DNA from: a virus
Reading direction: 5' to 3' (one strand)
Length of the DNA stretch: 41,663 bases
Virus genome (UHGV): UHGV-0121576
Shown: positions 17,899 to 40,791 of the stretch, one piece after another
Numbering within the stretch: position 1 is the first letter of the stretch
Layout of the letters: each line of letters opens with the position of its first letter
The notes under the pieces: generated by a model
The model's input: the letters and a program-made list of their open reading frames with translations, nothing else
Databases searched by the model: none
What the model was told of the DNA's origin: nothing
Made by a program: the position numbers and the translations under genes

Positions 17899-17909
17899 AG
17901 CGCCTCCCG

Positions 17910-19769: not shown

Positions 19770-19772
19770 CCC

Positions 19773-21072: not shown

Positions 21073-21092
<20 letters not shown>
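19773..21092 (-). CDS. C: Head maturation protease / scaffold C (S49 ClpP-like), with Nu3 scaffold expected in-frame in the 3-prime third
   Basis: VTAELRNLPHIASMAFNEPLML N-terminus from a GTG at 21092 gives 439 aa as lambda C; ORF-track start further upstream lies inside B. Confidence 0.85.
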
Positions 21093-24773
<3,681 letters not shown>

Positions 24774-24799
<26 letters not shown>

Positions 24800-25319
24800 T
24801 CAGCAACCCCGGTATCAGTTCATCCAGCGCGGCTGCTTTGTTCATGGCTTTGATGATATCCCGTTTCAGGAAATCAATATGCCGGTTATCCAGCTCAGGA
24901 AAACGTCGCTGCACCGACAGAGGAATACCGTCGAGAATACTGGATATTTCCCTTGCTATACGCGACAGCACGAAAGTACAGAATGCGGTTTCCACCACTT
25001 CAGCCGATTCTTTGGCATTTTTCAGTTCTTGCGCCGTCGCCTGAGCACGAGTCAGGCGATGGCGCTCAAATTCAAGTGTTCCGGGGTGAAGATCTGCCTC
25101 GCTGGCTAGCCGTAATTCTTCAACCTCCCGGCGCAGCTTTTCGTTCTCAATTTCAGCATCCCTTTCGGCATACCATTTTATGACGGCGGCAGAGTCATAA
25201 AGCACCTCATTACCCTTTCCACCGCCTCGCAGAACGGGCATTCCCTGCTCCTGCCAGTTCTGAATGGTACGGATACTCGCACCGAAAATGTCAGCCAGCT
25301 GCTTTTTGTTGACTTCCAT
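24774..25319 (-). CDS. Nu1: Terminase small subunit Nu1
   Basis: MEVNKKQLADIFGASIRTIQNWQEQGMPVLRGGGKGNEVLYDSAAVIKWYAERD matches lambda Nu1 almost residue for residue as recalled. Confidence 0.9.
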
Positions 25320-25324
25320 TGTTC

Positions 25325-25520
25325 ATTCCACGGACAAAAACAGAGAAAGGAAACGACAGAGGCCAAAAGGCCTGTTTTCAGCACCTGTCGTTTCCTTTCT
25401 TTTCAGGGGGTGTTTTAAATAAAAACATTAAGTTACGGAGAAGAAGAACGGAAACGCCTTAAACCGGAAAATTTTCATAAATAGCGAAAACCCGCGCGCC
25501 TTCCGCCCCGTAGCCTGCCG
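25325..25520 (-). other. cos site in joined (uncut) form: cosB-like R-site/IHF region and cosN-equivalent (25497-25508)
   Basis: Reverse complement of 25380-25500 aligns with the lambda left-end sequence (CGCGGGTTTTCGCTATTTATGAAAATTTTCCGGTTTAAGGCGTTTCCGTTCTTCTTC...); the 12-nt overhang-equivalent reads GGGCGGAAGGCG. Confidence 0.7.
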
Positions 25521-25580
25521 GATCGCCGGAAAGGACCCGCAAAGGTGAGAATAATTATCACTTGCATTAATATCCAGCTT

Positions 25581-25749
25581 CTTCCACCATCGCACCGGAC
25601 GGGCGACTATGAGGGACAAAACCGCGCACCATAAACGCGGTAAAAACCCGGTGTGCATCGTTTTTGATTATTTCCGCACACTCGCGCAGAGGAGTTCCCC
25701 GTCGGGCTACGGTCATGGTTAATGCGGAAATACGGCGACGATGCAGCGC
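25581..25749. repeat. Direct repeat copy A (169 bp; last 113 bp identical to copy B)
   Basis: Seen directly: 25637-25749 is identical to 26587-26699; the 5-prime 56 bp are about 80 percent identical. Confidence 0.9.
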
Positions 25750-25869
25750 ATGATGTGTCAGGCTTGAATACCTTTATCCGTTAAAAGGGATATCAGTTAA
25801 GTTATCCCGTGCAGGGTATAAGCCATTATCAAAGCCACTCAGTAGCGAATGGCTTTTGTAATGGACTAT

Positions 25870-26466
25870 TTAATTAGTGATGCTGCGTGGCTTCATACAA
25901 ATTTCAGAAATATGATTCTTTTCGTCCAAATGATGCTGGACATCATTTTTATCATCACTCAACAACTCTGCTGTTAATACAATCCCTGCTGTCTCAGATT
26001 TCCAGGAAATGCTGATATCCTGATCATCTGCATCAACATCATATTTTATCGAGTAAGGACTAAAGCTACGTCCAACGAACGCATCATTTACCAGTACACG
26101 CCCACCCTGTCTGACCTGAAAGTCAACGCGCCCTGAAAGCTGATTTGCTGTTACAAGCAATGCCTTTTTTCTTTTTGTTTTATTGCTCATTGCCACCAAC
26201 TGTTCAGCCATCTCTCTTGTCACACTACCAGAAACTCTTTCTTGAATTTTCACAGAAAATTTTCTGGATGTAGTAGCATCGACATTAAAAAATCTGGATG
26301 TCATCAGGCAGTTATTAACAATTGGCATCAGCTCACTTACGATTGTAAAAAATTCCCGGTAAAGCTCATTTTGCTTTTCAACACACAGCTTTCCACAATC
26401 GTCCAGCTTACGCTCAAGAGCACTTAATCTTTCCATTATTGAATTAATTTTTTGCAACTCTTTCAT
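25870..26466 (-). CDS. Hypothetical 198-aa protein (AT-rich cargo gene, N-terminal coiled-coil), function unknown
   Basis: ORF from ATG with AGGAGG RBS (minus strand GTCAGGAGGTTTTGATGAAAGAG); codon usage is AT-rich against GC-rich flanks; the upstream in-frame 87 codons cross the repeat and palindrome and are rejected. Confidence 0.55.
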   Translation of the reverse strand: MKELQKINSIMERLSALERKLDDCGKLCVEKQNELYREFFTIVSELMPIVNNCLMTSRFFNVDATTSRKFSVKIQERVSGSVTREMAEQLVAMSNKTKRKKALLVTANQLSGRVDFQVRQGGRVLVNDAFVGRSFSPYSIKYDVDADDQDISISWKSETAGIVLTAELLSDDKNDVQHHLDEKNHISEICMKPRSITN

Positions 26467-26489
26467 CAAAACCTCCTGACAAAGATACC

Positions 26490-26507
26490 GTGCGACCACG
26501 GTCGCAC
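26490..26507. promoter_or_regulatory. sopC-like centromere palindrome GTGCGACCACGGTCGCAC (site 1)
   Basis: 8-bp inverted arms around a central AC; core GACCACGGTC is identical to the F sopC repeat core as recalled. Confidence 0.6.
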
Positions 26508-26530
26508 GCTCCTGAATACATGCCCTGTTT

Positions 26531-26699
26531 CTTCCACCCTCGCACAGGACTGGCGAGCATGAGGGACAAACCCGCGAATCATTAGCGCGGTAAAAACCCG
26601 GTGTGCATCGTTTTTGATTATTTCCGCACACTCGCGCAGAGGAGTTCCCCGTCGGGCTACGGTCATGGTTAATGCGGAAATACGGCGACGATGCAGCGC
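26531..26699. repeat. Direct repeat copy B (169 bp), bracketed by palindrome sites 1 and 2
   Basis: See copy A; exactly 950 bp offset. Confidence 0.9.
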
Positions 26700-26709
26700 G
26701 GTATTTAAT

Positions 26710-26727
26710 GTGCGACCACGGTCGCAC
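26710..26727. promoter_or_regulatory. sopC-like centromere palindrome GTGCGACCACGGTCGCAC (site 2)
   Basis: Identical to site 1, 220 bp away, same orientation. Confidence 0.6.
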
Positions 26728-26746
26728 ACGAGAAACAAAGAGATTT

Positions 26747-27058
26747 TTATGCTACAGAGGAACAAGCTGGCGGGTAATTCAGCGTAGTGAATACCGGCAT
26801 CTCCATCTTGTATGCGTAATGATACTCAGCAGTTGCTCCAGCAGACGCTTTCCAGCCAGGAAGCATCAAAATAGCATCAGCACAACGAAGCATTGCAAAG
26901 CAAATATCCATGTATTCACGTTGTGTCAGACCATTAGGCAAAGTGGCTGGATTCAAGACAGAGTGACCATGTCGTGACAAACGATCTGCCTCTTTATTAA
27001 AGGCGTCACGATTAAAGTTCTCATATCCAGTCATTGGCCCGGCAATATAAATTTTCAT
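26747..27058 (-). CDS. DUF4406-like protein (nucleoside 2-deoxyribosyltransferase-like fold), function unknown
   Basis: N-terminal MKIYIAGPMTG...NF motif typical of this family as recalled; sits between Rz and the cargo gene. Confidence 0.55.
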   Translation of the reverse strand: MKIYIAGPMTGYENFNRDAFNKEADRLSRHGHSVLNPATLPNGLTQREYMDICFAMLRCADAILMLPGWKASAGATAEYHYAYKMEMPVFTTLNYPPACSSVA

Positions 27059-27099
27059 TCACTATCCAACAAATTGAGTTCGTTTTTGATACAGAGGGA

Positions 27100-27558
27100 T
27101 TAATTCAGGCATTGCGTCTTGATGTATTCCTGCAAGTAGTTAACCTGCGCAGTTATCCTGTCGATCCCACTTCGGAGACGGTAATAATTGAGTTCAGCAT
27201 CTGCTGTAAGTCTTGGGCTTTCTCCATTGCCCATGCCGCTGGCTCCGGTCGTTGACTTTGCACAGGTGGCGGCGACTTGCAGGCGCTTACGCCCAGCAGA
27301 AACATCAGCACGGAGACTTTCGATAGTCGCGTTAGCATCAGCAAGCTCCTTCGTGTATTTTGCATCGAGCGCAGCAACATCACGCTGACGCTGCTGCATG
27401 TCAGCGATGGTGGCGGTCGCCTGCTTCAGCTCACTGACTTTTTTATCACGCTGTTCTTTGTAGGCGATGGCGTTATCACGGTAATGATTAACAGCCCACG
27501 ACAGGCAGACGATGATGCAGATAACCAGTGCGGAGATAATTGCGGTTACTCTGCTCAT
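27100..27558 (-). CDS. Rz: Spanin inner-membrane subunit Rz
   Basis: From internal Met [31 protein letters not shown] matches lambda Rz; start overlaps the endolysin stop. Confidence 0.85.
27153..27338 (-). CDS. Rz1: Spanin outer-membrane lipoprotein Rz1, embedded in the +1 frame of Rz
   Basis: Lipobox LLGVSAC followed by Pro-rich [16 protein letters not shown], entirely inside Rz. Confidence 0.7.
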
Positions 27559-28055
27559 TGCTGCCCCCACAAACAGACTTCACGCTCAATCTCACGGCGA
27601 GTCATCAGCCCTTTCCATTGCTTACCGCCAGCATATGTCCAGCGACGTAGTTGATCACATGCACCTTTGATATCGCCCTGGTTGATTTTGCGAAGAAGTG
27701 TCGATGTTCTGAAATTGCCTGCACCCACGTTGTAAACGAACGAGTAAAGAGCACCACGCGTTGTTTCCGGTATATCGACTTTGATGTACGGGTTAATTTG
27801 TCTGGCGACAGTAGCAAGGTCTTTATTCAGGAGAGCTTTGCATTCTGCTTCGGTATACGTTTTACCGAGCATAATGTCTTTTCCTGTATGCCCGTAACAT
27901 ACAGTCCATACACCAACGATGTCTTTGTAGGGGTTATGTCTCACACCTTCCAGACCATCGTTGCCGCTCGGACCAGAGATGAGCACAGATGCTATGGCAA
28001 TAGCCCCGCCACCAATAGCAGTTGCGACAGCTTTGCGTAATGATGACTGCATCAT
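27555..28055 (-). CDS. R: SAR (signal-anchor-release) endolysin, T4-lysozyme-like (GH24)
   Basis: N-terminal Gly/Ala-rich SAR segment [21 protein letters not shown] then [25 protein letters not shown]; matches phage 21-type endolysin as recalled. Confidence 0.85.
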
Positions 28056-28324
28056 ATTTCCTTCGGTGCTCTCTTTCCCAATTCACCAATAACCATCGCC
28101 GTGGCGGAAATATTATTGGCATCAGTTTTATCCAATATGTCCTGCAATATCTTCGTGCGCTTCATCTGCTCGCGTTTATTGAGCCGGTATGTAAGTACAC
28201 CGAGGATAATGCTGAACGCGACACCGATAATGAAGCCCCAATCCTGCAATGACAGGCTGGCAAAGAACGCAGTAAGACCAGCACTACCATAAGATGCGCT
28301 GCTGTATCGTTCATCCATCTTCAT
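28052..28324 (-). CDS. Holin (class II / pinholin-like) with MKM dual-start motif
   Basis: 90 aa, two transmembrane segments, charged C-terminus, immediately upstream of and overlapping the SAR endolysin gene. Confidence 0.65.
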
Positions 28325-28419
28325 ATCTCTTACCTCGCAATAGTTGCTGAGGTTTCGGCTTGGAAACTATACGGCGAGAAATAACCCCATCAAAAACGGC
28401 AGGGGAATATATTCTTCAG

Positions 28420-29541
28420 TTACTCAAATAACTTTTTCACTTCATCAACTGTCTGAAGATAACGTTCACCCTCAATCTCAATACCGATTGCCTGACGACC
28501 TAACTTCAGCGCGGCTTTAATAGTAGAGCCTGATCCCATAAAGAAATCGGCAACGATATCTCCGGGGCGGGAACTACTTTTTATAATATGTTCCATCATC
28601 GCTGCAGGTTTTTCACATGGGTGCTTGCCAGGATAATATTGCACAGGAGGAAACTCCCATACATCGGTATAAGGTACATCAGCAGTAACATGAAATGGGC
28701 GGCGCAAATTTTCATACTGAGCCTTCAAATCATCATACTGCTTCTTTACTTCCTCATAACGCAATTTCAGATCGCTATAACGCTTTTCATGTTCTGAATA
28801 ATCAACATTAAAAGGATATGGACACGGGACACCGAGTGAATCTGCCTTCCTGCGAAATAATTCGCATAGTTTATTAAAATCACTTAATGATGGAAGCCGC
28901 CACTGCGAATAAGAAAACCAGTGCGAACACATCTGCTTTCCTGTTGCTGAATTAATGTCTGCGGCTGATATATCTAACTGACGGCGAGCCAGCGAAAAAG
29001 CATCAATTAGTGGAGAAAAAATATTTTTTCTTAAATCTGCACATTTTGAAGCATAACCTGACTGACCTTTAGCATAACCTGACGCGCCGTAATGCTCTGC
29101 AAATAATATTCTTTCAGTGGCAGGAAAATAAGCCCTTAAACTTTCTTTATGACAACCGCGCCACATACCACTGGGTTTAGCCCAAATGATAAGGTTCAGA
29201 ACATTGAAACGGTCGCGAGTTAATAATTCAATTTTTGACGCAAGGCGAGAGCCGGTAAACATATACAGGCTGCCATTAGGGGCCAATATCCGCCAAAATT
29301 CTGCCAAAAATTCATCAATCCACCCCAAAAAGTCAGCATCGCTATCCCACTGGTTATCCCATGCGTTAGCCTTTACGCCGAAGTATGGTGGGTCTGTTGC
29401 AATCAAATTGACCGAGTTATCAGGGATGGTTTTGATAAATTGCAGAGAATCTGCGCAAACGAGTTGCGCGCCATGAATATTAGTGGTTTTGAACATAGCT
29501 ATTATTTTTTTGCCTGGGTAAGCTAACCCGGCGATGCGCAT
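28420..29541 (-). CDS. Orphan DNA methyltransferase (N6-adenine or N4-cytosine, beta class)
   Basis: Motif IV DPPYF near the N-terminus and motif I FFMGSGST near the C-terminus; no adjacent restriction endonuclease; true start may be the internal Met at about 29496. Confidence 0.8.
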   Translation of the reverse strand: MRIAGLAYPGKKIIAMFKTTNIHGAQLVCADSLQFIKTIPDNSVNLIATDPPYFGVKANAWDNQWDSDADFLGWIDEFLAEFWRILAPNGSLYMFTGSRLASKIELLTRDRFNVLNLIIWAKPSGMWRGCHKESLRAYFPATERILFAEHYGASGYAKGQSGYASKCADLRKNIFSPLIDAFSLARRQLDISAADINSATGKQMCSHWFSYSQWRLPSLSDFNKLCELFRRKADSLGVPCPYPFNVDYSEHEKRYSDLKLRYEEVKKQYDDLKAQYENLRRPFHVTADVPYTDVWEFPPVQYYPGKHPCEKPAAMMEHIIKSSSRPGDIVADFFMGSGSTIKAALKLGRQAIGIEIEGERYLQTVDEVKKLFE

Positions 29542-29631
29542 CGCGGGTGGGCTTTAGGTTCAGCCTATAGCTCTGGCATGGGTTGACCGCAGGACAAGCT
29601 GCAACTTGTCCTGCGCCCACTTTTCAGGCAC

Positions 29632-29655
29632 AAAAAAACCGCCATAAAGGCGGCT
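29632..29655 (-). terminator. Promoter-proximal intrinsic terminator in the late-operon leader (tR-prime-like)
   Basis: Minus strand GCCGCC-TTTA-TGGCGG followed by TTTTTTT, about 40 nt downstream of the candidate late promoter. Confidence 0.5.
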
Positions 29656-29691
29656 TGTTGGCTGTTGGGTACAAAAAACCCAACTTAACAA

Positions 29692-29720
29692 ACAATAACT
29701 AAAAACCGTAATTTTGCCAA
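29692..29720 (-). promoter_or_regulatory. Candidate late promoter (-35 TTGGCA, 17-nt spacer, -10 TATTGT)
   Basis: Sigma-70-like hexamers read on the minus strand, 20 bp downstream of palindrome site 3. Confidence 0.35.
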
Positions 29721-29739
29721 GCTTTTTCGTTTTTGTGCT

Positions 29740-29757
29740 GTGCGACCGTGGTCGCAC
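29740..29757. promoter_or_regulatory. sopC-like centromere palindrome GTGCGACCGTGGTCGCAC (site 3, opposite orientation)
   Basis: Same arms as sites 1 and 2 with central GT; flanking CT and AG extend the symmetry to 22 bp. Confidence 0.6.
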
Positions 29758-29762
29758 AGTTT

Positions 29763-29990
29763 TTAGAAAGTTGCCTGCTTATATTCATCGGTCAAAGAAT
29801 ATCGACCAGACCCGCTACGCTTTGCAACCCCAAAACAGATCATCTGTTCGATGATAAATTCAACGGCAGCTTGACTCAAAAAACAGGCTTCGCTTAACTC
29901 TTTCAGGGAAATGCGTGGGTATCCACGCATAACACATTCCACACTCAGGGCCGCTTCAGTCATATTTCCACGAATTTCATTAATATTCAT
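29763..29990 (-). CDS. Hypothetical 75-aa protein (possible small DNA-binding protein)
   Basis: ORF only; last gene before the late-promoter leader. Confidence 0.4.
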   Translation of the reverse strand: MNINEIRGNMTEAALSVECVMRGYPRISLKELSEACFLSQAAVEFIIEQMICFGVAKRSGSGRYSLTDEYKQATF

Positions 29991-30003
29991 AACGCCTCTC
30001 TAA

Positions 30004-30243
30004 TCAATCTTGAAACTGGAAATCAACATCAGCCATAAAGCGGTTCAACTCAGCCAGTTTTGGCCCCATAGTCCCAACTAAGCGACCAGCCAGTCGGTCT
30101 GCCAGGTTGGTACTGTTGAAACCATATTCCTTTTCGAAACGTTCAACCTTCTGCCACAACTCATACAGTTCGTTAGCTATCTCCGCAACGTCGTCGCGCA
30201 TTTTTTCGTTACCTTGATAATTCATAATATCCTCCAAATTCAT
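30004..30243 (-). CDS. Hypothetical 79-aa acidic protein
   Basis: ORF only; divergent from the toxin-antitoxin promoter region. Confidence 0.4.
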   Translation of the reverse strand: MNLEDIMNYQGNEKMRDDVAEIANELYELWQKVERFEKEYGFNSTNLADRLAGRLVGTMGPKLAELNRFMADVDFQFQD

Positions 30244-30390
30244 ATAGTTAGTGGGTTATTGCCCCTCAATGACACGAACTGTAACTCTGCCAAACGAACA
30301 CATCCAGTGTTATTTTTCACTTTTTAGTGAAATTTTTAATTTGCGCTTTTTTCTTGTTTTGGTGTATTTTATGGCTATGGAGGCTATAAT

Positions 30391-30702
30391 ATGTTTAACG
30401 TGATAACCCACCCTGCAGCACTGGATGAACTGCTTGAACTACCAGATGATTTGCGAGGTCGCATGACCAGATTAATTGAGCGACTGGAGAAGGAAGGCAA
30501 CAAACTGAAGATGCCCCATAGCCGTGTAATAGGTGGAGGGCTTTTTGAACTACGAGTAGGGGATAAAAACATCGCAAGAACGCTGTACGCCTACGCGACT
30601 GGTAACGAAATTTATCTATTGCATGCATTTGTAAAAAAGACACAGAAAACACCGGTGAAGGCTATCGAAATCGCCAGAACTCGCCTGAAGGAGATGAACT
30701 GA
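30391..30702 (+). CDS. Type II toxin, RelE/ParE superfamily, Gp49-like (HigB-like)
   Basis: LFELRV...ARTLYAYATGNEIYLLHAFVKKTQKTP motif typical of the phage Gp49-like toxin family (named after N15 gp49) as recalled; followed by an overlapping HTH gene. Confidence 0.7.
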   Translation: MFNVITHPAALDELLELPDDLRGRMTRLIERLEKEGNKLKMPHSRVIGGGLFELRVGDKNIARTLYAYATGNEIYLLHAFVKKTQKTPVKAIEIARTRLKEMN

Positions 30703-30989
30703 TGAAAGCGAAAGGCATCCCGTTTAACGAAGTAAAAGAAAAACTTCTCAACACTCCAGAAGCCATCAAAGGATATGAAGAGGCCGATAAAGAGCTGGAG
30801 ATGGTCGAAATGTTATACGAAATGAGGGAAAGAGCAGGTTTAACGAAGTCAGCTCTGGCTGAACGAATGGGATTGCGCCCGTCAGCTATCAGCCGCCTGG
30901 AAAGCAATCCTTTAGGGGCAAGCATGAAAACTTTATCAAAATATGCCCAAGCATGCGGTGCAACGATTAATATTAATGCCGTCTATTGA
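30702..30989 (+). CDS. HTH XRE-family antitoxin (HigA-like)
   Basis: HTH LTKSALAERMGLRPSAISRLE; start overlaps the toxin stop (ATGA). Confidence 0.7.
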   Translation: MKAKGIPFNEVKEKLLNTPEAIKGYEEADKELEMVEMLYEMRERAGLTKSALAERMGLRPSAISRLESNPLGASMKTLSKYAQACGATININAVY

Positions 30990-31006
30990 TTAGACCCTTT
31001 TCGCTA

Positions 31007-31026
31007 CCCCGTCCAGAAGGGCGGGG
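31007..31026 (+). terminator. Hairpin after the toxin-antitoxin pair (weak T-tract)
   Basis: CCCCGTCC-AGAA-GGGCGGGG stem-loop between convergent genes. Confidence 0.3.
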
Positions 31027-31032
31027 TGTGTA

Positions 31033-31251
31033 TCAATGATGCAAACACTCAACAGCAATAACTTGTTGGCAATTCTGAGCAATCTCCCGCGACATACTAA
31101 CAAGTCGTGAAATCTCGCCAAGATGCAAGCTGGCTTCTGGAGAAGCCAGAGCAACGCTAACCAGATCTAAAACGGCGTCGATGTCTTTTAGGTTTGATCC
31201 GAGTTCTTCAAGAGTTGATACAGGTGCTTCAGTCATTGAATCTAATACCAT
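31033..31251 (-). CDS. Hypothetical 72-aa acidic protein
   Basis: ORF only; preceded by a 240-bp non-coding region. Confidence 0.35.
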   Translation of the reverse strand: MVLDSMTEAPVSTLEELGSNLKDIDAVLDLVSVALASPEASLHLGEISRLVSMSREIAQNCQQVIAVECLHH

Positions 31252-31493
31252 TTAATTAAAAAAGGTTATTTGATACTGTATAAAATTACAGGGTAAAACT
31301 CAAATTTTATAGCCAACTTTCAATGGATTAACTGGTTAAATATCTTTGTAGTCCGATACTTATGTTCCCTTCCTACGCCTCGCCCAACCACTTTCAAAAG
31401 CCCATCACCACCATCAGAAAAGCTCTTTTCGCTCCGTTTTCGTATCATTTCAAAAAGCAATGCCTTTTTGTCCATTTATCCCTCCGTGACCAG

Positions 31494-31820
31494 TCACACT
31501 TTGAGCGCAAGTTTCAGCCTCGTGGTTGTAAGGTGGCATGAGCCTTCACCATCAAAAATGCATTCTGAAACAGGCATTTTTTGACCACATCGCGGACAAG
31601 TAGTAGATAGCTGTTTCTGCAACTCCTTATAGTTTTTCCTGATCAGCAGTCCGATGACTTCGTTCTCTGAATATGGAACTCGCCCTGGTCTACGCAATAC
31701 ACAAATTTCCCCCAACATACGTAACTCGTCAGGTTCCAGAATCCAGTCACGTCTTGATGTTCCTTCCTTCTTCAACCGTTCCCTGCGTCTTCTTTGCCGT
31801 TCTGCCGGTGTCAGCGCCAT
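31494..31820 (-). CDS. Hypothetical protein with N-terminal arginine-rich motif and C-terminal CxxC...CxxxxC cluster
   Basis: MALTPAERQRRRRERLKKEG then CPRCGQKMPVSECIFDGEGSCH; last gene of a five-gene overlapping cluster. Confidence 0.45.
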   Translation of the reverse strand: MALTPAERQRRRRERLKKEGTSRRDWILEPDELRMLGEICVLRRPGRVPYSENEVIGLLIRKNYKELQKQLSTTCPRCGQKMPVSECIFDGEGSCHLTTTRLKLALKV

Positions 31821-31835
31821 AAATCCTCCTAAAAA

Positions 31836-32597
31836 TTACTTAACCCAATTAACTACACCGCCAGCGGCCACAACCGCTTTTTCACAGTCACGCTCATATC
31901 TCAAAGGTTGAAATACACCATCAATAAAATATTTATCTCCACCACATGCTGCTGGAAGTGAAACAGAAAACTGAATACGACCATCATCTGGCATTTGCTC
32001 ACTACAGCTTATCCAACCATCCGGAGTTACCGGATAGTTGCCCGATAGCGCATTACGCAATCGCTCCAGCTTCACGTATTCCTGAACCCTGTTTCCGTCG
32101 CATGCCTGAAGCCATTGCGCAGCCTTTTGCGCATCAGTGTGAAAGGCACAAGTGCGACCGTCATCAAATTGCATTTCGTAGAGGTCAGCAACTTGTTCAA
32201 ACTGCGTGTGTTGTGACTTGTAAGTTTGGCTTACAGGTTCGGCACCATGAAGCATGGCGGCGCGGCAGGAGTTCCAGCCTCTCACCTCTGCAATAGCGGC
32301 AACAGCATCGACCGCGTACATTTTAAGAGGGTTAGGCATTGTTTTTTCTTCAGGTACTACTGGCACTGGAGGGGCGGCATAAACAGGAATAACGTCCGCT
32401 TGCTCTTTATTGCTTTCATCCGTTAAAGCCCAGAATAATTTCCCGGCCGGATGTTTGAAAATATAAGCAACTGGATCTGCTTCCAGCGATGCCAGTGCAA
32501 TTTCATAAGCACGGCGCTCAATATTGTCTCGAACGTCCAAGCTGCCTATGCGCTCTTTGATTTCTTTAATCAGTTCTTTGTCGGTAAACGTGATCAT
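31836..32597 (-). CDS. Hypothetical phage protein (about 253 aa from the internal Met MITFTDKELIKEIK)
   Basis: Start overlaps the upstream stop (TAATG); no confident family assignment. Confidence 0.45.
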   Translation of the reverse strand: MITFTDKELIKEIKERIGSLDVRDNIERRAYEIALASLEADPVAYIFKHPAGKLFWALTDESNKEQADVIPVYAAPPVPVVPEEKTMPNPLKMYAVDAVAAIAEVRGWNSCRAAMLHGAEPVSQTYKSQHTQFEQVADLYEMQFDDGRTCAFHTDAQKAAQWLQACDGNRVQEYVKLERLRNALSGNYPVTPDGWISCSEQMPDDGRIQFSVSLPAACGGDKYFIDGVFQPLRYERDCEKAVVAAGGVVNWVK

Positions 32598-33175
32598 TAT
32601 GCTCCAGCCTCCGGTGCTTTCGGCATTACTGCCCAATGAGTGATATTGACGTTTTCAAGATCCCCGACCTGAAATGTCCACTGCCAGTCTCCGGTTTCTT
32701 TTTGTCCCCAGGTGTACCAGAGAGAACGCCAGCCAATCAGCCAGCCTTCTCCGTTAGCATCGAATAACAAAACACTTTCATTTGCAGGTGGCAGTTCAGC
32801 TGACACTGGTGTTACTTTGTTTCCCTGTTCTACAATTCGCTTTCTTGCAGCTTCCAGCTCAATAGACAATTTTTCCAACTGCTCTTTATGCTTTTTGTAT
32901 TCCTGATATGCGTGCCAGGACTGTCCTTTGCGCACGCTTTCAGTAATATCAGCAACCTGCTCTGGAGTTAGCGTAGTCAGTTGCTGGGCTGGAAAAATCA
33001 TTACTTGTCCGGAATCCCAGTCAAAACCAGCCTGAATTGACTGAACATCAACTGATGGTGTTGAACCAATGCTACCTGGTGAATGAACAACAATCGTTAC
33101 ATTCATATCGCAACGCTGGCTGTGTTTGTTGGACAAGATACGATTCACCAACTCAGAAAATTTGGAAAATTTCAT
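32597..33175 (-). CDS. Hypothetical phage protein (192 aa, Trp-rich C-terminal domain)
   Basis: C-terminal GWLIGWRSLWYTWGQKETGDWQW; overlapping start/stop with neighbours. Confidence 0.45.
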   Translation of the reverse strand: MKFSKFSELVNRILSNKHSQRCDMNVTIVVHSPGSIGSTPSVDVQSIQAGFDWDSGQVMIFPAQQLTTLTPEQVADITESVRKGQSWHAYQEYKKHKEQLEKLSIELEAARKRIVEQGNKVTPVSAELPPANESVLLFDANGEGWLIGWRSLWYTWGQKETGDWQWTFQVGDLENVNITHWAVMPKAPEAGA

Positions 33176-33462
33176 GCGGATTCCCCTTTCTCTGCTTTCT
33201 CCTGTCGGAACATCATGATCATCAGATCACCTTTGGTTGCCACTCTGACTGTTGTGCCTGGTTCAATGCTGTTAAGTTCAAATGCGTCATAGAACGCTTC
33301 TAATGCCTTCTGGCGTAGCTCCTGTTTGCGCCGTTTTTTCCACTGTTTTAGAAAAACAGTGGCCGCCCACTTCCCTGCGCTGAACATGATGTAAAAATAA
33401 CCAAACAGGGCCAGACCAGTATTCAGAACCGTATCGACCGTCATTGTTGTGTCGATATTCAC
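33172..33462 (-). CDS. Small single-pass membrane protein
   Basis: Hydrophobic segment LALFGYFYIMFSAGKWAATVF followed by basic stretch. Confidence 0.45.
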   Translation of the reverse strand: MNIDTTMTVDTVLNTGLALFGYFYIMFSAGKWAATVFLKQWKKRRKQELRQKALEAFYDAFELNSIEPGTTVRVATKGDLMIMMFRQEKAEKGESA

Positions 33463-33881
33463 CGCACCACCTCATGAAAATTTCCCTGATAAAACGCCAG
33501 TACACGCTGCATAACTTCGCTCTTCCGACAATCGTGACAAATCATGTTCAAGCGCCTGTCGTAACGACGTATTTCTCCGTCAGGTAATGACCAGATAAGG
33601 TCTGGATCAACCACTACCGATTTCTTCGGCTTTACTCTTGATAGTTTTTTACGGGCGTTTTGCCAGTCCTTGCGTGCTTGTGCAGACAGAAATATCCCGG
33701 AGCCAGAGATATACAAATCACCACTGGCAGCAAGCTCTCTTGATAAACGACTAACAGCACACCGGCTAATACCAGTTTCATCCGCAAGTTGCCTAACCGT
33801 TCCTCGTCCATTCAGGCGCACGAGTTCCACAATTTGTTTATTCAGTTCTTCCCTCTGTTCTGGTGTAAAAGCCTTTGCCAT
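33459..33881 (-). CDS. Putative winged-helix DNA-binding protein
   Basis: N-terminal GTVRQLADETGISRCAVSRLSREL HTH-like segment. Confidence 0.5.
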   Translation of the reverse strand: MAKAFTPEQREELNKQIVELVRLNGRGTVRQLADETGISRCAVSRLSRELAASGDLYISGSGIFLSAQARKDWQNARKKLSRVKPKKSVVVDPDLIWSLPDGEIRRYDRRLNMICHDCRKSEVMQRVLAFYQGNFHEVVR

Positions 33882-34480
33882 TACGATTCTCCTTGCCCTT
33901 TTACAAGACGGGAGAAAATTGCGGATACATATTTAGCCTGATGAATAGCATCAGCCAGGGCATTGTGTCGTTCGCCATCAAATGGCATATCTTTTTTAGG
34001 ATTAAAACCAATAAACTGACCAAGATTAACGATTGTTCGAACATCCTGATCATTAAAATATTCCCACGGACAGGCTAAGCCAACGCGCTCATAAGCACCG
34101 CGTAAAATTACATTATCGAACGTTGCTCCATTTCCCCATACTTTCAACTTTTTTAAATTACATGCATGGAAAGTAATAAAGTGTGATAATTCAAAAAGTG
34201 CATCCTTAATATCAAGGGCATCATTAGTACAAATAGCGGCTCTGGCTTCCTTGCTCTGTTTCAACCACCATAAAATGGTATCACCATCGGCGATACCACC
34301 ATTCAACATCGAGCTTCTGAGATTCACTGGCACATAAAAAGTAGGACCTAATTCCTCACTTTCTGGAGAAAAAAACACTGCCCCGATAGAAACAATTGCA
34401 GCACATGTATTAGTACCCATTGTTTCAAGGTCAATCATTACATCAGACCGTTTCCTGTCGTAAATAATCTGATTAGTCAC
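33881..34480 (-). CDS. DEDD-type 3-prime to 5-prime exonuclease (DnaQ-like)
   Basis: N-terminal MIDLETMGT motif and C-terminal H...ALADA motif typical of DEDDh exonucleases. Confidence 0.65.
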   Translation of the reverse strand: MTNQIIYDRKRSDVMIDLETMGTNTCAAIVSIGAVFFSPESEELGPTFYVPVNLRSSMLNGGIADGDTILWWLKQSKEARAAICTNDALDIKDALFELSHFITFHACNLKKLKVWGNGATFDNVILRGAYERVGLACPWEYFNDQDVRTIVNLGQFIGFNPKKDMPFDGERHNALADAIHQAKYVSAIFSRLVKGQGES

Positions 34481-34503
34481 GAATAATTATCCTCAACGTT
34501 TAT

Positions 34504-34707
34504 CTATACCCAAAACTTCTGTTGATATGTTCTGGATGGTTTTGGCGCTCTTTCTGATTCAGGTAAATGAACATAAACGCAATATCCATCACCTAAAAAA
34601 TCAGAACGAACAACCAGAACTTTCTTACCACGCCGCCGATAAGTATCTGAAAGACGCTCTGCTTCATCATGCGTCATCGGCCCCTGCTTAAATGGCGTTA
34701 TTTTCAT
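34504..34707 (-). CDS. Hypothetical 67-aa protein
   Basis: Start placed at the internal Met because the upstream MRPWSH codons are the palindrome itself. Confidence 0.35.
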   Translation of the reverse strand: MKITPFKQGPMTHDEAERLSDTYRRRGKKVLVVRSDFLGDGYCVYVHLPESERAPKPSRTYQQKFWV

Positions 34708-35008
34708 TTTCTTGTGCGACCACGGTCGCACCCTCTCTGATTTCCAAGTAACGCTTAATCCAAAGATTTTCTATATGCTTATTACCTGGCTGATTTGATA
34801 AATACCAATCGGCAATTACAGACTGCTTATTACTATCTGGTCGTGTCCTGTAACCACAAGTTGGACACCAGATAACATATTCATTTCTTACCCCCGAATA
34901 CCTTAATTCTGGCTTCGACGGTTTCCTGAACATAACTTGTTTACAAAGGCAGAATGGCACTTCCTGCCCGATGGCGTTTGATGATTTCACTGCGCTTCTC
35001 CGCCGCAT
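34688..35008 (-). CDS. Small Cys-rich zinc-ribbon protein (possibly Lar-like)
   Basis: CLC and WCPTCG pairs; overlaps the end of the upstream ORF, so the start is uncertain. Confidence 0.35.
   Translation of the reverse strand: MRRRSAVKSSNAIGQEVPFCLCKQVMFRKPSKPELRYSGVRNEYVIWCPTCGYRTRPDSNKQSVIADWYLSNQPGNKHIENLWIKRYLEIREGATVVAQENENNAI
34714..34731. promoter_or_regulatory. sopC-like centromere palindrome GTGCGACCACGGTCGCAC (site 4)
   Basis: Identical to sites 1 and 2; lies between the Q-like/zinc-ribbon genes and the downstream operon. Confidence 0.6.
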
Positions 35009-35651
35009 TTAATAATGCAGTTCGATTTAAGCTCAGACATCGCGACTTAATTAAAAGCCAGCGTTCTTTATAATCTTGTCTCCAGCTATCAATAGATATA
35101 TTCAGTAGAAAACTCAGATGCCTGTCCTGTTCTCTCTCATCAACTGCCTCAGCACACGTAAGTTCTGACTTAACCTGCTGTGCCGCGTAATAAATCAATT
35201 TTCTCATGGCTTTTTTCGTGGAGGCCTTCATTTTTTTAAACCCGCCACCCGAATGCGCAACCAGAAAATCAAGCCATAACCACTGACAAACAATCACATC
35301 ATTGTTGTAGTCAGGCTTGCATCCGTAGCAATAATAAAGCCAGGCTGATTCCTCGTTATTCAACTGACCAATAGCCCTGCGCCAGCTGGCGCTCTGAAAA
35401 TCAATATCAGTGAGCAACATTGATGATTGTTTAAATGTTTTGCCCTGGTGGAATCTAACCGGCTCAGCAGGAACAGACACTTCGTATGAGTTATCATCAC
35501 CTACACTGATTGACCGGACTGGTTTATTGTTAAAGCGTCCTGATCTGCCTAGACGCATCTGCTCAAGCTGGACCTCTAGGATGCCACGCTGGCGATAATG
35601 AATATCAGCCAATGCCGTGGAGACGCAGCTGCGTATATACTCAAGCTCCAC
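34941..35651 (-). CDS. Putative late regulator (antiterminator Q-like by position only)
   Basis: 236-aa ORF immediately downstream of the Cro-like gene, as in the N15 cro-Q arrangement; no sequence motif confirmed. Confidence 0.3.
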   Translation of the reverse strand: MELEYIRSCVSTALADIHYRQRGILEVQLEQMRLGRSGRFNNKPVRSISVGDDNSYEVSVPAEPVRFHQGKTFKQSSMLLTDIDFQSASWRRAIGQLNNEESAWLYYCYGCKPDYNNDVIVCQWLWLDFLVAHSGGGFKKMKASTKKAMRKLIYYAAQQVKSELTCAEAVDEREQDRHLSFLLNISIDSWRQDYKERWLLIKSRCLSLNRTALLNAAEKRSEIIKRHRAGSAILPL

Positions 35652-35889
35652 GCTTACGGCTCTCCTTAATCGACTGCTTTACCCGCCGAGTTGTAAAGTC
35701 ACTCTTCAGCTTGTAAGCAGTACGAACTTCAATATCACTTTGCCGCAATGAAGGAATCTCTCCAGCGGTTAACCATTGGTAAACAGCACCGGGTGTTACA
35801 CCTACCCCAGCCGCTGCTTTTTCTACACTGCCAAAGTGGCGAATAAGTTCTTCTGGTTTCATGCGGTTATTATAAGCAATAAATCGCAT
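35641..35889 (-). CDS. Cro-like HTH regulator
   Basis: HTH AAGVGVTPGAVYQWLTAG; divergent from the CI-like repressor gene. Confidence 0.6.
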   Translation of the reverse strand: MRFIAYNNRMKPEELIRHFGSVEKAAAGVGVTPGAVYQWLTAGEIPSLRQSDIEVRTAYKLKSDFTTRRVKQSIKESRKRGA

Positions 35890-35931
35890 TTAAAGCCAGC
35901 TATAATAAATAAATTTTATAGCCAGCTATAA
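35890..35931. promoter_or_regulatory. Candidate operator pair in the cro / repressor divergent region
   Basis: Two 16-bp near-palindromes TTAAAGCCAGCTATAA (35890-35905) and TTATAGCCAGCTATAA (35916-35931), 26 bp centre to centre. Confidence 0.45.
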
Positions 35932-35953
35932 GAAGATCATTTATGATTAAGCT

Positions 35954-36550
35954 ATGAAAACACGAGGCGAACGACTGAAAGCACGCCGTTTAGAGATGAA
36001 GCTGACGTTGCGAGAAGTTGCTGAGGCTGTCGATATCTCTATTGCAGGCGTCCAAAACTTAGAACGTGGCGACGTAATGCCGTCACTGGAGATAGGTATT
36101 GCCCTGGCTAAATGCTTACGCAAGCCAGTGCATTGGGTGCTGTATGGGACAGAATATGACCCTGATCGCATTCCTGTTATTGGCACAACTGAAAGTGGAC
36201 CTGATGAAGAGTGGAAGCCAGGACAGGTTCCAAATACTGAGCGATTCCTGCCATTCATCAGCCAGCGCAATACTGTTTATGCGTTAACTATCAGCAATCT
36301 GGCGCAGGGAAACTATCAGCCTGGCGATTTTCTCCTGGTCGATTCTGCGCTGGAACTGGTCCCCGGAGAGGATGTTCTGGTTCGTGATACTGCAGGAAAT
36401 ATCACCATCCAGCGCCTGGCCCGTTTTGATGATGAAAATTACTATCTGGACGGAACAAATTCACAACGCGCTATCTTCAGGAAAAGCGATCTTGAATTTG
36501 TTCACCAAATAGTCGGAACGATCAAATCATTCATGGTTGAGGGTAGATGA
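35954..36550 (+). CDS. CI-like prophage repressor (HTH XRE plus LexA/S24-like C-terminal domain)
   Basis: N-terminal HTH LTLREVAEAVDISIAGVQNLERG; C-terminal PGDFLLVD...VEPGEDVLVRD aligns with the lambda CI C-terminal domain; located upstream of repA. Confidence 0.75.
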   Translation: MKTRGERLKARRLEMKLTLREVAEAVDISIAGVQNLERGDVMPSLEIGIALAKCLRKPVHWVLYGTEYDPDRIPVIGTTESGPDEEWKPGQVPNTERFLPFISQRNTVYALTISNLAQGNYQPGDFLLVDSALELVPGEDVLVRDTAGNITIQRLARFDDENYYLDGTNSQRAIFRKSDLEFVHQIVGTIKSFMVEGR

Positions 36551-36651
36551 CTTAATACGGGGTTTATTGTTTGCTGTAAATCTGGTTTAATGCAGAGCAT
36601 ATGTTCTGTGGGTTGACTCAGGTTACAGCAGCAGAAAAAAGACGAAAAAAA

Positions 36652-36680
36652 ACCCGAGTCGGCAAACTCGGGTCCTTTTC
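36652..36680. terminator. Hairpin between the repressor gene and repA, with T-tracts on both strands
   Basis: CCCGAG-loop-CTCGGG preceded by AAAAAAAA and followed by TCCTTTTC. Confidence 0.35.
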
Positions 36681-36795
36681 AGGAAGCAGCCACAGTAACG
36701 CGACGGATTCCGTCAATTCAAGATGCGTTTATTGTGGCTGCTCCTGCGGATTTTTTCAACCCGAAAAAACATAATTCGCATGGAATGGCTAAAAA

Positions 36796-39700
36796 ATGAC
36801 ATTAAACGATTTCTATGCGGATCGCTTTGGCAGCGATCCGTTCTCGCTAATTGAAGCAGCACGGGATGAACTAACCGAGCTGGCACAGATGGCTGGTATC
36901 AACTGGTCTGCCTGTTCCGACAACATCCAACTCAACCCTCGCGGGGGTGTTGAGCGTTACTCTTCATACAATAAAACATCCCCAGAAGCTCTCGAAAAGA
37001 GCCTCAAAGGACGCGTAGAAATTTACTCCCGGCTGGAACACAGCAAAGGGATTGATTACCCGTTCATTAACTTCGTCCATAAAGGCAGCGATGCTGGCTC
37101 ATGGAGCGGTTTCTCCTTCCTGTTTTCTGAATATCGCCGTGAGCAACAACGGAATAATGCGACCGTGGTCGCACAACCGGAAGAAGAACGGGCAAGAATA
37201 GAACGTCAGGCCGAAGCACGTCGTCGCCGTGAAGAACAAAAACGAATTAATGACCTGAAAAACAACCAAATGGACCATGAACGTTTGCTGGGATGGCTGG
37301 CATTCCACAGTGCTTGGGAACATGCTCCTGCAGAAGACGGCTCATGGCCATATGCGATTAAAAAAGGTATTCGTGACGTTTTTAATTCGTGTGATGTGCG
37401 TCGCGTGACCAGTCACGACAGCGCAAAATGGAGCAGGGGGCCAACCACGTATATGGCTATCCCTCTGGCTCACCTGGACGGTCGTTACGATGGTCGTATT
37501 GTTGGTTGGCAGCGAATCGACAAACAAGGTGGAAAATACCAGACCAGCGCCGTAACCAGCGGCGATTTCGTCGGTGCCTGCTTTGTTATCGGTGAGCTGA
37601 AAGGGGCGCAAAACATCGCTGTTACAGAAGGTTTTGCTACTGGTGCATCCATCTGGCTTGCCACGAAAAAAGATAAACGCTTTGACGCTGTGGTTGTCGC
37701 TGTATCCGCTAACAACATGGTTCATGTTGTGGAACAACTGGTAAACATGTACCCGGCGGCAAAAATCACCTGCGCACTGGATAATGACCGGAAATCAGCT
37801 ACAGAAGGAAAAGGGAATACCGGCCTGCGGACTGGCTATGAAATCTTATCGAAATTCAACGATGTCCGCTGCGTCTATCCAACTTTTGAAGACGATCCGC
37901 AAATGGAGTGCAGTGACTTCAACGACCTGCACAAACTACGTGGACTTCGTGAAACAGCACGTCAACTGTTTGCAACTGCAAACCGCCTGAAAACTGGCAC
38001 TGATTTGCTATCTCTGACGCTCAACCGCCTGAAGACAATTAAGCGGGATAACCGTCGTACTTTTGCCAAAGAGCTGCTGAGAGCAGTGGATATTGGCATG
38101 CTAACCTGTCCGGTTCCTAACAGTCCGTCAGACTTATTTAACATGTTCTGCATCGTCCTGCGTGAAATTGGGCTGGAAAATATCTATCGCGCTACGGTAA
38201 AAGACCACATTGCCCGTCGCCTGAATAAAAAGTGCCGTATTGCCCAGGCTCCGCGCTCATTCAGCGAACGAATAACTGATCCCAATAAACGTCCTCAACA
38301 TATCACCTATAAGCGTTTTGAAACTTCGGTAATGACCGATGACGTCCTGAAGTATGTGCAATCACTACAGGGGATAGTCATCGTTCGTGCTGGTATGGGT
38401 TCCGGCAAATCTACTGGATTGTTACGACCTTTAATGCATAGCTCAGAACGTGGTATCTCTGTTGCTCACCGTGTTTCCCTTATTGGTGGCCTGTGGGAAA
38501 TGATGACAGAAGGAAAAGGTGTAAAAGCCGATATCCTGCACTATCAGGACCCTGGCTATCAGGAAATGGCTCCATACGCCAGTAAACTGACCATCTGCAT
38601 AAACTCGATTGTTAAAAACTGCTGGCAACCATTGATGCGCCAGCACGACTATTTTGGCTTTGACGAGGCCACGCAAGGGCTACGTGCCGTTCTTTCCGGT
38701 CGGGCTATGGAAAACCCGGTGGCTGTATTCAATACGTTAATTGACGCGCTGGCCAGAACGGAACAACACCCAATAATGGTGGATGCTGATGCGAACGATC
38801 TGCTGGTTGACCTGGCTGAACTGGCTATGAAACGCCGTGAAGAACTAGGTTTACCGGCATGGCTGCAGATCCACGTAATTGAATTACCTGTTGATGTTCG
38901 CAACCGCGAAACAGGTGAGCCAATCCGGGTTTTTTATACAGAAAAAGATCGCATTATGACCGAGGTGGTGAAAGCTGTATCGAATGGCGAAAAAATCATG
39001 TTGGCCACCGACAGCTCCACCTTTGCAGAAGATGTGACCGCCACCCTGAGAATGCATTTTCCTGGTAAGAAATTTCTGTGTGTAAACCAGAAAAACAAAC
39101 CAGAGCCAGAAGTTGAAGCATTTACCAATCAACCGAAAAAGATGGTCAAAAAATACGACGGCCTGATTTATAGCCCGTCTATTTCATCCGGTGTGTCGAT
39201 TGAGCAAAAACATTTTGACCGTCATTTCGGCATGTTCTGTGGTGAAGTTGTACCCAGCGACGCAGTGCAAATGCTACGCCGCGACCGTACAGCAAAAGAA
39301 TTTATTATCGGCTTTGATAAAGCTCGCGCAAAACGTGAAACTGACCCGCAAAAAATAGAACGAGCATTCGCCCAGGCATTGCTTGCTACCGCAGGCATGA
39401 ACGGTGAACTGACGGATGTCGTTTTCGATGGCGACCGTATATCAATGGGGGTGGCCAATACCGACTTTACCAGGATGAAAATTAAAGCAGCCGCAATTGA
39501 AGCGTCTGCGCGTAACGACTACGCCAGCAACATGATCTGCATCATGCACAGCGACGGTTATAAGGTATCGCCGCTGGCCACCGATTATGCTGCGAATGAT
39601 ATCGGTAAAGATCTGCGTAAAGAAGCGCGGGATATTGTGTGGGAACAGACACTGGATCTGCATCTCAATACAGAAACTCCACAAGAATCAGAGCGTGAAG

Positions 39701-40791
39701 AACTGCTAAAAAAACGCGCGCTGACGCTTGAAGAACAAGCAAAACTTGTCCGCTGGGATATTGAGAACGAACTGAAACTACCGGTTGAAGAAGGCACGCT
39801 GAAATTCTATTTCGATGGTGCTCGAGACAAAGTTCGCCGCTATGAAACAATGCTTTTAGATGAGGTAACAGCTCGTCGTTACGACCGGGAAGAAGCAGCC
39901 ATCAATTTTACCTACGCATACCGTCAGGCGGGACAGTGGCAATATTTTGTAGTGACCGCGATGACTCGCGAGCAGGCTGATGATGTCTTTAAAACTAAAT
40001 TCCCTGGAATAATCGACTACAAGGTAAAAGCTACTCCTACTGTTGAAGTCGGGGCGCGCGGTTTCTATGCGCTTAAATCAGCAACTCTCCGGCAGTACTT
40101 TATCGACTGCGGTATCAACCCTGAGACTATGACCGGCGAGGCGACTCAGGAGCGTCTCAAATTCGCTCGAGATAACCTCATGACAGCCGAACGCCGTGAC
40201 CTGTTGAATAACGTTCTGCACATTGGTGGTTTTATGACGCCAAAAGGGAAGCCTAAAGTGCCGGAAGCGTTGTTTAAAAACATTTGCGACTCTCTTGGCC
40301 TTAAAACAGGTAAACGTCGCGGCAGAGACGGCGATAAGCGTCCAACCTTGCGTTTTGTTGAGCCTGAATCAGCGGCATTTATGCTGGATATTCTTGTTCA
40401 GCGTCAGAAAGATGGCCTAACCCTAAAAACGCGTAAAGCCGAGAAGACAGCCATCGAAATGGATCGCGATTTGGATCTCAATATATATATGGATGATAAA
40501 ACGCGATCCACAAACGAGCAGGTTCAAAACGCCCCTCATTCAGTAATTTCTGAGGCTTTGGCCGTATTGCCGGTGGCTGTTCCTGAGTCCTGGGCGATGA
40601 GTGCGCTTTCCGGTGAGGAGCTGGCCACTATGTCATCATGGTCATCAGCCAGCATAGCTATGACGTTTGCATCTCTGTATCTCACAGAGTTCATGGATCA
40701 CTTGTCCAGCAATGAATTGCGGCGGTTACGAGAATACATTACCGGGAATAGCTCATGCAGCTACGAAGAGCAGGGAGCTTTCTATGGGTAA
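36796..40791 (+). CDS. repA: RepA replication initiator, multidomain primase-helicase
   Basis: 1331 aa (N15 RepA is about 1324 aa as recalled); P-loop GMGSGKST; position downstream of the CI-like repressor. Confidence 0.85.
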   Translation: MTLNDFYADRFGSDPFSLIEAARDELTELAQMAGINWSACSDNIQLNPRGGVERYSSYNKTSPEALEKSLKGRVEIYSRLEHSKGIDYPFINFVHKGSDAGSWSGFSFLFSEYRREQQRNNATVVAQPEEERARIERQAEARRRREEQKRINDLKNNQMDHERLLGWLAFHSAWEHAPAEDGSWPYAIKKGIRDVFNSCDVRRVTSHDSAKWSRGPTTYMAIPLAHLDGRYDGRIVGWQRIDKQGGKYQTSAVTSGDFVGACFVIGELKGAQNIAVTEGFATGASIWLATKKDKRFDAVVVAVSANNMVHVVEQLVNMYPAAKITCALDNDRKSATEGKGNTGLRTGYEILSKFNDVRCVYPTFEDDPQMECSDFNDLHKLRGLRETARQLFATANRLKTGTDLLSLTLNRLKTIKRDNRRTFAKELLRAVDIGMLTCPVPNSPSDLFNMFCIVLREIGLENIYRATVKDHIARRLNKKCRIAQAPRSFSERITDPNKRPQHITYKRFETSVMTDDVLKYVQSLQGIVIVRAGMGSGKSTGLLRPLMHSSERGISVAHRVSLIGGLWEMMTEGKGVKADILHYQDPGYQEMAPYASKLTICINSIVKNCWQPLMRQHDYFGFDEATQGLRAVLSGRAMENPVAVFNTLIDALARTEQHPIMVDADANDLLVDLAELAMKRREELGLPAWLQIHVIELPVDVRNRETGEPIRVFYTEKDRIMTEVVKAVSNGEKIMLATDSSTFAEDVTATLRMHFPGKKFLCVNQKNKPEPEVEAFTNQPKKMVKKYDGLIYSPSISSGVSIEQKHFDRHFGMFCGEVVPSDAVQMLRRDRTAKEFIIGFDKARAKRETDPQKIERAFAQALLATAGMNGELTDVVFDGDRISMGVANTDFTRMKIKAAAIEASARNDYASNMICIMHSDGYKVSPLATDYAANDIGKDLRKEARDIVWEQTLDLHLNTETPQESEREELLKKRALTLEEQAKLVRWDIENELKLPVEEGTLKFYFDGARDKVRRYETMLLDEVTARRYDREEAAINFTYAYRQAGQWQYFVVTAMTREQADDVFKTKFPGIIDYKVKATPTVEVGARGFYALKSATLRQYFIDCGINPETMTGEATQERLKFARDNLMTAERRDLLNNVLHIGGFMTPKGKPKVPEALFKNICDSLGLKTGKRRGRDGDKRPTLRFVEPESAAFMLDILVQRQKDGLTLKTRKAEKTAIEMDRDLDLNIYMDDKTRSTNEQVQNAPHSVISEALAVLPVAVPESWAMSALSGEELATMSSWSSASIAMTFASLYLTEFMDHLSSNELRRLREYITGNSSCSYEEQGAFYG
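37157..37174. promoter_or_regulatory. sopC-like centromere palindrome ATGCGACCGTGGTCGCAC (site 5, inside repA)
   Basis: 17 of 18 match to site 3; 7-bp perfect arms; lies within the repA coding sequence. Confidence 0.55.

Follow-up and report, generated by a model that had tools for sequence, protein, structure and literature searches.

Five dispersed palindromes of the N15 SopB-site type in an N15-like viral contig

Palindromes and their gene context

UHGV virus genome UHGV-0121576 is a 41,663-nucleotide (nt) metagenome contig (ENA ERZ1755983 NODE_307) with a coverage of 3.8x, and the whole of this stretch is referred to here as the window. Judged by its sequence, it is part of an N15-like linear phage-plasmid, an Escherichia coli relative of Escherichia phage PhiR46_1, with which it shares 98% identity over the 16 kb queried; similarity to phages N15 and phiKO2 is weaker. 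Our subject is a palindrome that recurs five times in the window and that an earlier note, made from the sequence alone, had regarded as probably the centromere of the element, bound by its partition protein SopB.

The window is oriented in reverse relative to the N15 record. Its left end carries sopA and sopB (76-2244, plus strand), which are followed by minus-strand lambda-like tail and head genes up to Nu1 (24774-25319) and then by cos. To the right of cos lie a small block, the lysis genes, a Dam-type methylase gene, the late promoter, early genes, Q, cro, the CB repressor gene and repA. The contig stops short of telN and tel; in PhiR46_1, telL and telR are annotated, and an open reading frame (ORF) of 633 amino acids (aa) is found at the position of N15 telN.

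A pattern search of the whole window for GTGCGACCNNGGTCGCAC (GTGCGACC-NN-GGTCGCAC) returned matches at all 18 positions at 26490, 26710, 29740 and 34714, and a match at 17 of 18 positions at 37157 (ATGCGACCGTGGTCGCAC). The sole mismatch of the last site is its outermost base, and therefore all five sites have a perfect 16-base-pair (bp) core, TGCGACC-NN-GGTCGCA. No site beyond these five appeared when the window was scanned with up to three mismatches allowed. The five palindromes listed in the earlier note are thus real, set against an expectation of 0.01 sites by chance from 100 dinucleotide shuffles, none of which reached five. Likewise, the 10-bp core GACCNNGGTC is found only five times, always at a palindrome, compared to 0.40 occurrences expected. 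The central dinucleotides on the plus strand are AC, AC, GT, AC and GT in the order given above, and so both orientations of the centre occur, as the earlier note had said. The same search of PhiR46_1, a complete genome from telL to telR, gave the identical set of five sites and no others, and an Rfam search of the window found no family anywhere.

The earlier note had also likened the core to that of the F plasmid sopC repeat, and the two indeed have GACCACGGTC in common, the F repeat being TGGGACCACGGTCCCA (PMC3597684). When the F-type half-site TGGGACC was sought in the window, the best matches were the same five sites, each with two mismatches. The arrangement is unlike that of F, again as previously noted. 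The sites are single, spaced 0.2 to 5 kb apart and located 24 to 35 kb from sopB, and no sopC-like tandem array of 43-bp repeats adjoins sopB in the window, where the nearest site is 24 kb away.

The positions of the sites relative to genes (Table 1) largely agree with what had been described. One site does lie inside repA, and the site reported as 20 bp upstream of the candidate late promoter is separated from the -35 element by 19 nt. The two right-end sites do flank a duplicated cos-side segment, here called D1: its second copy fills the space between them. The site at 34714, which was said to separate the Q-like region from the downstream operon, is indeed about 210 bp past the Q stop codon, but it falls within a conserved Lar-like ORF and not in a gap. 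There it is translated as G-A-T-V-V-A-Q. Both intragenic sites (34714-34731 and 37157-37174) are read in the same frame and the same orientation, which gives the peptide A-T-V-V-A-Q in both the Lar-like protein and RepA.

Table 1. Coordinates of the palindromic sites and associated features in the window
Feature	Position	Strand	Remarks
IR1-equivalent site	37157-37174 (core 37158-37173)	.	inside repA, codons 121-126, read N-A-T-V-V-A-Q
IR2-equivalent site	34714-34731	.	within 3' end of Lar-like ORF
IR3-equivalent site	29740-29757	.	upstream of late-promoter -35 TTGGCA
IR4-equivalent site	26710-26727	.	directly after DUF4406 gene (N15 gene 57 homologue)
Extra fifth site	26490-26507	.	24 nt upstream of phrog_2571 start codon; homologue of the site that relatives have near cos
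D1 copy 2, duplicate of lambdoid cos-proximal segment	26513-26699	.	exactly between the two right-end sites
D1 copy 1, cos-proximal segment	25563-25749	.	common to lambdoid phages; no adjoining palindrome in the window
sopB, centromere-binding protein, 329 aa	1255-2244	+	PF18090 SopB_HTH, E=1.6e-23; N15-type recognition helix AEAEGVDRNIISRC
sopA, partition ATPase, broken into ORFs 76-354 and 356-1258	76-1258	+	13-bp insertion at 331-343
repA, primase/helicase-type replication protein	36796-40791	+	homologue of N15 gene 37
Lar-like ORF	34688-35008	-	phrog_6795, E=1.5e-45; IR2-equivalent site within its last 15 codons
Q-like antiterminator gene	34941-35651	-	PF06323, E=2e-84
Late promoter, N15 p52 homologue	29692-29720	-	TTGGCA, 17 nt, TATTGT; aligned with annotated N15 -35/-10
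Intrinsic terminator 3' of late promoter	29636-29656	-	conserved with N15 stem-loop 41229-41250

SopB and the sites of related elements

The palindrome equals the published consensus of the N15 SopB-binding sites IR1 to IR4 (PMC7205306 Table 4). Oligonucleotides for the N15 "4xIR centromere" (IR1-4) carry the same 18-mer, and N15 SopB makes foci on this array (PMC7205306). A further study (bioRxiv 10.1101/2024.03.26.585537) employs N15 for linearisation only and does not mention the IR sites. In N15, the sites are found at 33479 (gene 37/repA), at 35930 (between Q and gene 41), at 41124 (20 nt upstream of the late-promoter -35 annotated at 41162) and at 45561 (after gene 58). The dispersed centromere that the earlier note attributed to N15 is therefore confirmed, with the same consensus at the same four gene positions. 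The likeness extends to a SopB that is 73% identical and to the helix motif, with sites at about codon 121 of repA, after Q, before the late promoter and at the right end. N15 differs in having four sites compared to five in the window, in a repA site whose core matches at only 15 of 16 positions where that of the window is perfect, and in its central dinucleotides. Moreover, the window is without N15 gene 58, its right end is rebuilt with the lambdoid D1 duplication, and its sopA is frameshifted.

The RefSeq record of phiKO2 (NC_005857) annotates four "putative plasmid partitioning sites," which are identical 16-mers in the same four gene contexts. They include 40345 (IR2 class), 45384 (with a putative late promoter at 45421) and 48618 (after gene 58). 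Relatives of phiKO2 have an extra site after the major capsid gene, whereas the structural arm of the window has none. In PY54, whose partition system is SpyAB, a de novo palindrome count revealed eight dispersed F-type sites that cover the same four positions. Among the eight are sites within repA and within the Lar-like ORF44, upstream of the late methylase gene and, at 44409, after the DUF4406 gene, and some of the eight are in the head-gene arm. PY54 is thus similar in layout but has the half-site TGGGACC and an F-type helix. F itself belongs to the same SopB family, has a palindrome that is one base off per half-site (TGGGACC versus TGCGACC) and shares the centre of the site, yet it carries 10 to 12 tandem 43-bp repeats adjoining sopB where the window has single dispersed sites. 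The chromosomal parS sites of Spo0J/ParB offer a more distant parallel, as these are single 16-bp palindromes that are scattered, sometimes intragenic, and each able to nucleate ParB (PMC3597684). However, they have another consensus, serve another ParB subfamily and lie near the chromosome origin rather than in a phage regulatory arm.

The earlier note held that the element carries sopAB. This is correct for sopB, which is intact, but not for sopA, which is split by an insertion. The SopB of the window matches the F SopB-DNA structure 3MKY (E=5.8e-39) and shares 73-75% identity with its N15 and phiKO2 counterparts. Its recognition helix (GNVKSLAEAEGVDRNIISRCIN) and that of N15 (GNVKALAEAEGIDRNIVNRCMN) have the motif EG[IV]DRNI in common. 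Relative to PhiR46_1, the insertion in sopA is CAGCCAGCTTCTC, and it results in a 92-aa N-terminal ORF that ends in TAG and is followed, after 1 nt, by the ATG of a 300-aa ATPase ORF. It is absent from PhiR46_1 and from the plasmid records listed for the region, and two ENA assemblies have this variant too. The frameshift may be real, or it may be an assembly error at this low coverage.

The recognition helix and the half-site change together. N15, phiKO2 and the window combine EG[IV]DRNI with TGCGACC, and F and PY54 combine ENISRKI with TGGGACC. Specificity determinants of SopB have all been located within 22 residues of the helix-turn-helix (HTH), and the N15 and F sites are known to be one base apart per half-site (PMC2910045). 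The helix that we compared falls within these 22 residues. Furthermore, F SopB has been reported not to work with N15 sites (PMC7205306).

The sites also appear to be constrained as DNA. Of the repA codons compared among 11 distinct N15-type haplotypes, 21 of the 23 that flank the site vary at the third position, against only one of the five within it (Fisher p=0.003). PY54 RepA has the peptide G-T-T-V-P at this place instead of A-T-V-V-A, and this fits the different site of PY54. The 16-bp core is invariant in every positional class while the flanks diverge, for example across 16 distinct flank haplotypes for the 34714 class and 21 for the 29740 class. The exact palindrome is carried by 120 IMG/VR loci, and 118 of them belong to phages like N15 or phiKO2 or to lambdoid phages that share the late block. 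The remaining two have GC fractions of 0.35 and 0.68 and no homology, and they are probably chance matches.

Taken together, these observations make it very probable that the five palindromes are the dispersed centromere of an N15-family linear phage-plasmid, bound by its own SopB. Sequence identity, positional orthology, protein/site co-variation and constraint at the DNA level are directly observed, whereas binding, partition and any effect on late genes are expected by analogy with experiments on N15 and F. The proposal of the earlier note that these are probably the centromere is upheld by identity to the IR sequences, by position, by the phiKO2 annotation, by the HTH domain and by the recognition helix, which mark them as N15-type SopB sites.

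Right-end sites, prophage copies and other explanations

The number of sites varies among relatives. D1 is a 187-nt segment whose two copies in the window are 91% identical, and it is found in 424 phage records, mostly unannotated. In some relatives the order is cos, about 90 bp, palindrome and D1, which indicates that the 26490 site together with D1 copy 2 is this module, copied and displaced. A third site at the right end, close to cos, is present in some relatives. Of 5426 complete E. coli genomes, 3182 have a match to an 801-bp query that contains D1. Both D1 copies hold a short possible ORF starting MTVARRGTPLRECAEIIKNDAHRVFTA, and the small ORFs at 26466-26765 and 25428-25658 gave no PHROG match.

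Additional sites occur elsewhere as well. In some IMG/VR relatives of the IR3 class, the site upstream of the late promoter is doubled, the two tandem copies being about 50 bp apart. Phage-plasmids of the phiKO2 type (L021, L007 and about 35 other IMG/VR loci) have an extra perfect site right after the major capsid gene, and in one recurring context the flanks lengthen this palindrome to about 13 bp per arm. We considered whether the palindrome is a mobile mini-element and rejected this idea because the sequences flanking the 18-mer are unalike between site classes. We also rejected Escherichia phage YDC107_1 (CP025712.1) as a carrier of sites without sopB. The record, labelled a "complete genome," was assembled as a fold-back at the telomere: the telN-to-repA arm is present twice, inverted, and the sopAB end is missing.

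Several points weigh against a partition function for all five sites in this molecule. The frameshift leaves the window without an intact SopA, the partner expected in an N15-type system, and therefore partition may fail in this particular molecule. In addition, a lambdoid prophage in the chromosome of E. coli VTB96815v (4685856-4714656) matches window positions 13149-27136 at 97-99.8% identity and has both right-end sites in perfect form without sop, repA or an N15-type Q. These two sites can thus persist without a SopB encoded in cis, and their presence in an exchanged block is not by itself evidence of partition function. A 106-bp query containing the palindrome matched 47 chromosomal places and 18 plasmid places in complete E. 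coli genomes.

It could be that 26490 and 26710 are passengers of a recombining late-gene block and that only 37157, 34714 and 29740 do partition work. We judge this unlikely. The VTB96815v prophage speaks for it, as do the lambdoid phages 4C10 and IdasGreatGrand, which have the same flanks without the palindrome segment of about 30 bp. Decay of the sites in lambdoid settings can be read in the same way. A more diverged prophage without sopAB, CFSAN029787, has kept one site while the second has become AGCGACCACGATCGCA, and two lambdoid loci (L139 and L148) each have one site with two mismatches. However, among loci anchored on phrog_2571, 12 of the 13 phage-plasmid contexts have both sites in perfect form, while a decayed site is present in three of the five lambdoid contexts (Fisher p=0.04 for loci that are not independent of each other). 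The 801-bp D1 query matches 4892 chromosomal and 40 plasmid places, such that the palindrome is present in roughly 1% of the chromosomal places and nearly half of the plasmid places. Moreover, the site at the IR4 position is kept in N15, phiKO2 and PY54. The pattern of decay and the place counts are as expected if the sites are under selection in the presence of SopB and not elsewhere. As we read the sequences, the pair probably hitch-hikes into lambdoid prophages, decays there and is kept where SopB is available. A bolder extension, which we regard as improbable, is that the moving late-gene block leaves orphan N15-type centromere sites in E. coli chromosomes and that these act in trans. If it were true, the SopB of a phage-plasmid in the same cell might be titrated or recruited by such sites, with partition incompatibility or cross-talk as a consequence, or a lambdoid prophage might borrow SopB for late expression or for segregation after induction.

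Two further explanations would dispense with SopB. Palindromes of this kind might act chiefly in RNA, as hairpins or intrinsic terminators along the early and late transcripts, instead of binding a protein, and each site can indeed form a hairpin with a 7-bp stem and a tetraloop, at about -10 to -11 kcal/mol. In N15, a putative rho-independent terminator stem-loop is annotated at IR4, and the position of the post-capsid site of phiKO2-like elements is an annotated terminator in phiKO2 (~6000-6040). The lambda-like integrase phage 2B8 (LR595859.1, 48655-48670) carries, about 93 bp from its right cos end, a single symmetric variant, TGCAACCGTGGTTGCA (TGCAACC..GGTTGCA), in which both arms are altered in concert. 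Nevertheless, we hold this explanation to be very unlikely. A hairpin would tolerate compensatory changes in its arms, yet those of the sites do not vary between site classes or among diverged phages, and they switch as a block with the SopB helix. Two of the sites are inside ORFs, the run of T residues after the stem is missing at most sites, and the central dinucleotide varies freely in both orientations. In a loose terminator scan of the sites, 26490 alone passed, with a weak terminator-like hairpin score on the minus strand, and the other sites did not qualify as intrinsic terminators. The 26490 site may thus have a SopB-independent role, for instance as a weak terminator. The palindrome might instead be the operator of another dimeric phage regulator such as CB, Cro or a small HTH protein, since one site is just upstream of a promoter, another is near the immunity region, and several HTH proteins are encoded nearby. 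We find this hardly credible. The operators of N15 CB are annotated at 34056-34094 and 34729-34793, apart from the N15 palindromes, and the half-site co-varies with the SopB helix, including the pairing of F-type site and F-type helix in PY54. The foci of N15 SopB on the four-site array likewise speak for SopB, and not another regulator, as the ligand.

Two other features were seen in the window. A tandem repeat at 5156-5274 consists of 2.8 copies of a 42-bp unit with a 21-bp sub-period, and it is in the large minus-strand ORF 3586-5799, located where PhiR46_1 has its side tail fibre gene. At ~25882-25888, the window is missing 826 bp that are present in PhiR46_1 (17891-18716). As a result, the phrog_2571 gene encodes 198 aa where that of PhiR46_1 encodes 287 aa, and a 150-aa ORF is gone. 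The shortened form is common to three IMG/VR contigs.

Proposed function and meaning

Under the centromere assignment, the SopB of the element, a ParB-family protein, would bind as a dimer to each 16-bp core through its HTH, with TGCGACCNNGGTCGCA as the proposed target DNA. Bound dimers would then seed partition complexes, which the SopA ATPase would position so that each daughter cell receives a copy. Four of the sites are best viewed as positional orthologues of N15 IR1 to IR4, which reportedly were described by Ravin and Lane in 1999 and by Grigoriev and Lobocka in 2001. The fifth probably goes back to mosaic recombination at the right end that displaced or duplicated a cos-proximal module composed of the palindrome and D1.

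The sites at 34714 and 29740 probably also aid Q-dependent late transcription in lytic growth. The geometry of the region is the same as in N15 (Q, site, about 5 kb, site, promoter, terminators), and so the same role in late expression is likely. Ravin, Rech and Lane are reported to have linked N15 SopAB and its sites to late-gene expression in 2008 (J Bacteriol 190:3538). In that work, mutations in IR2 or IR3 reportedly delayed lysis, and SopAB together with IR2 is said to have raised Q-dependent expression from the late promoter bearing IR3. The intrinsic terminator that follows the late promoter is presumed to be the target of Q antitermination. A second hairpin at 29588-29615 on the minus strand, past the promoter and the first terminator, is kept in N15 with two compensatory A-T to G-C changes, and it is probably a second terminator-like element of the late leader. 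The earlier note had suggested that SopB couples partition to both lytic-gene expression and replication. The late-gene part of this idea agrees with a link that has already been published for N15, whereas we found nothing in support of the replication part, which is a conjecture.

The feature is therefore an ordinary one that is already explained, namely the dispersed SopB centromere of N15 and phiKO2 with a minor variation in site number. The fifth site is a lineage-specific extra, and the other four match the N15 and phiKO2 positions. Public records of PhiR46_1-like E. coli phage-plasmids leave the sites unmarked, and these, like those of the window, can now be labelled as a SopB/ParB centromere, although the result matters little beyond annotation. 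Intact sites in chromosomal prophages that have no sopAB raise a small question. The family also provides a clean natural case of a ParB recognition helix that co-varies with its site, and of a coding sequence, repA, that is bent to preserve a DNA site. The number of sites changes by local duplication and module exchange, with four in N15 and phiKO2, five in the window and eight in PY54.

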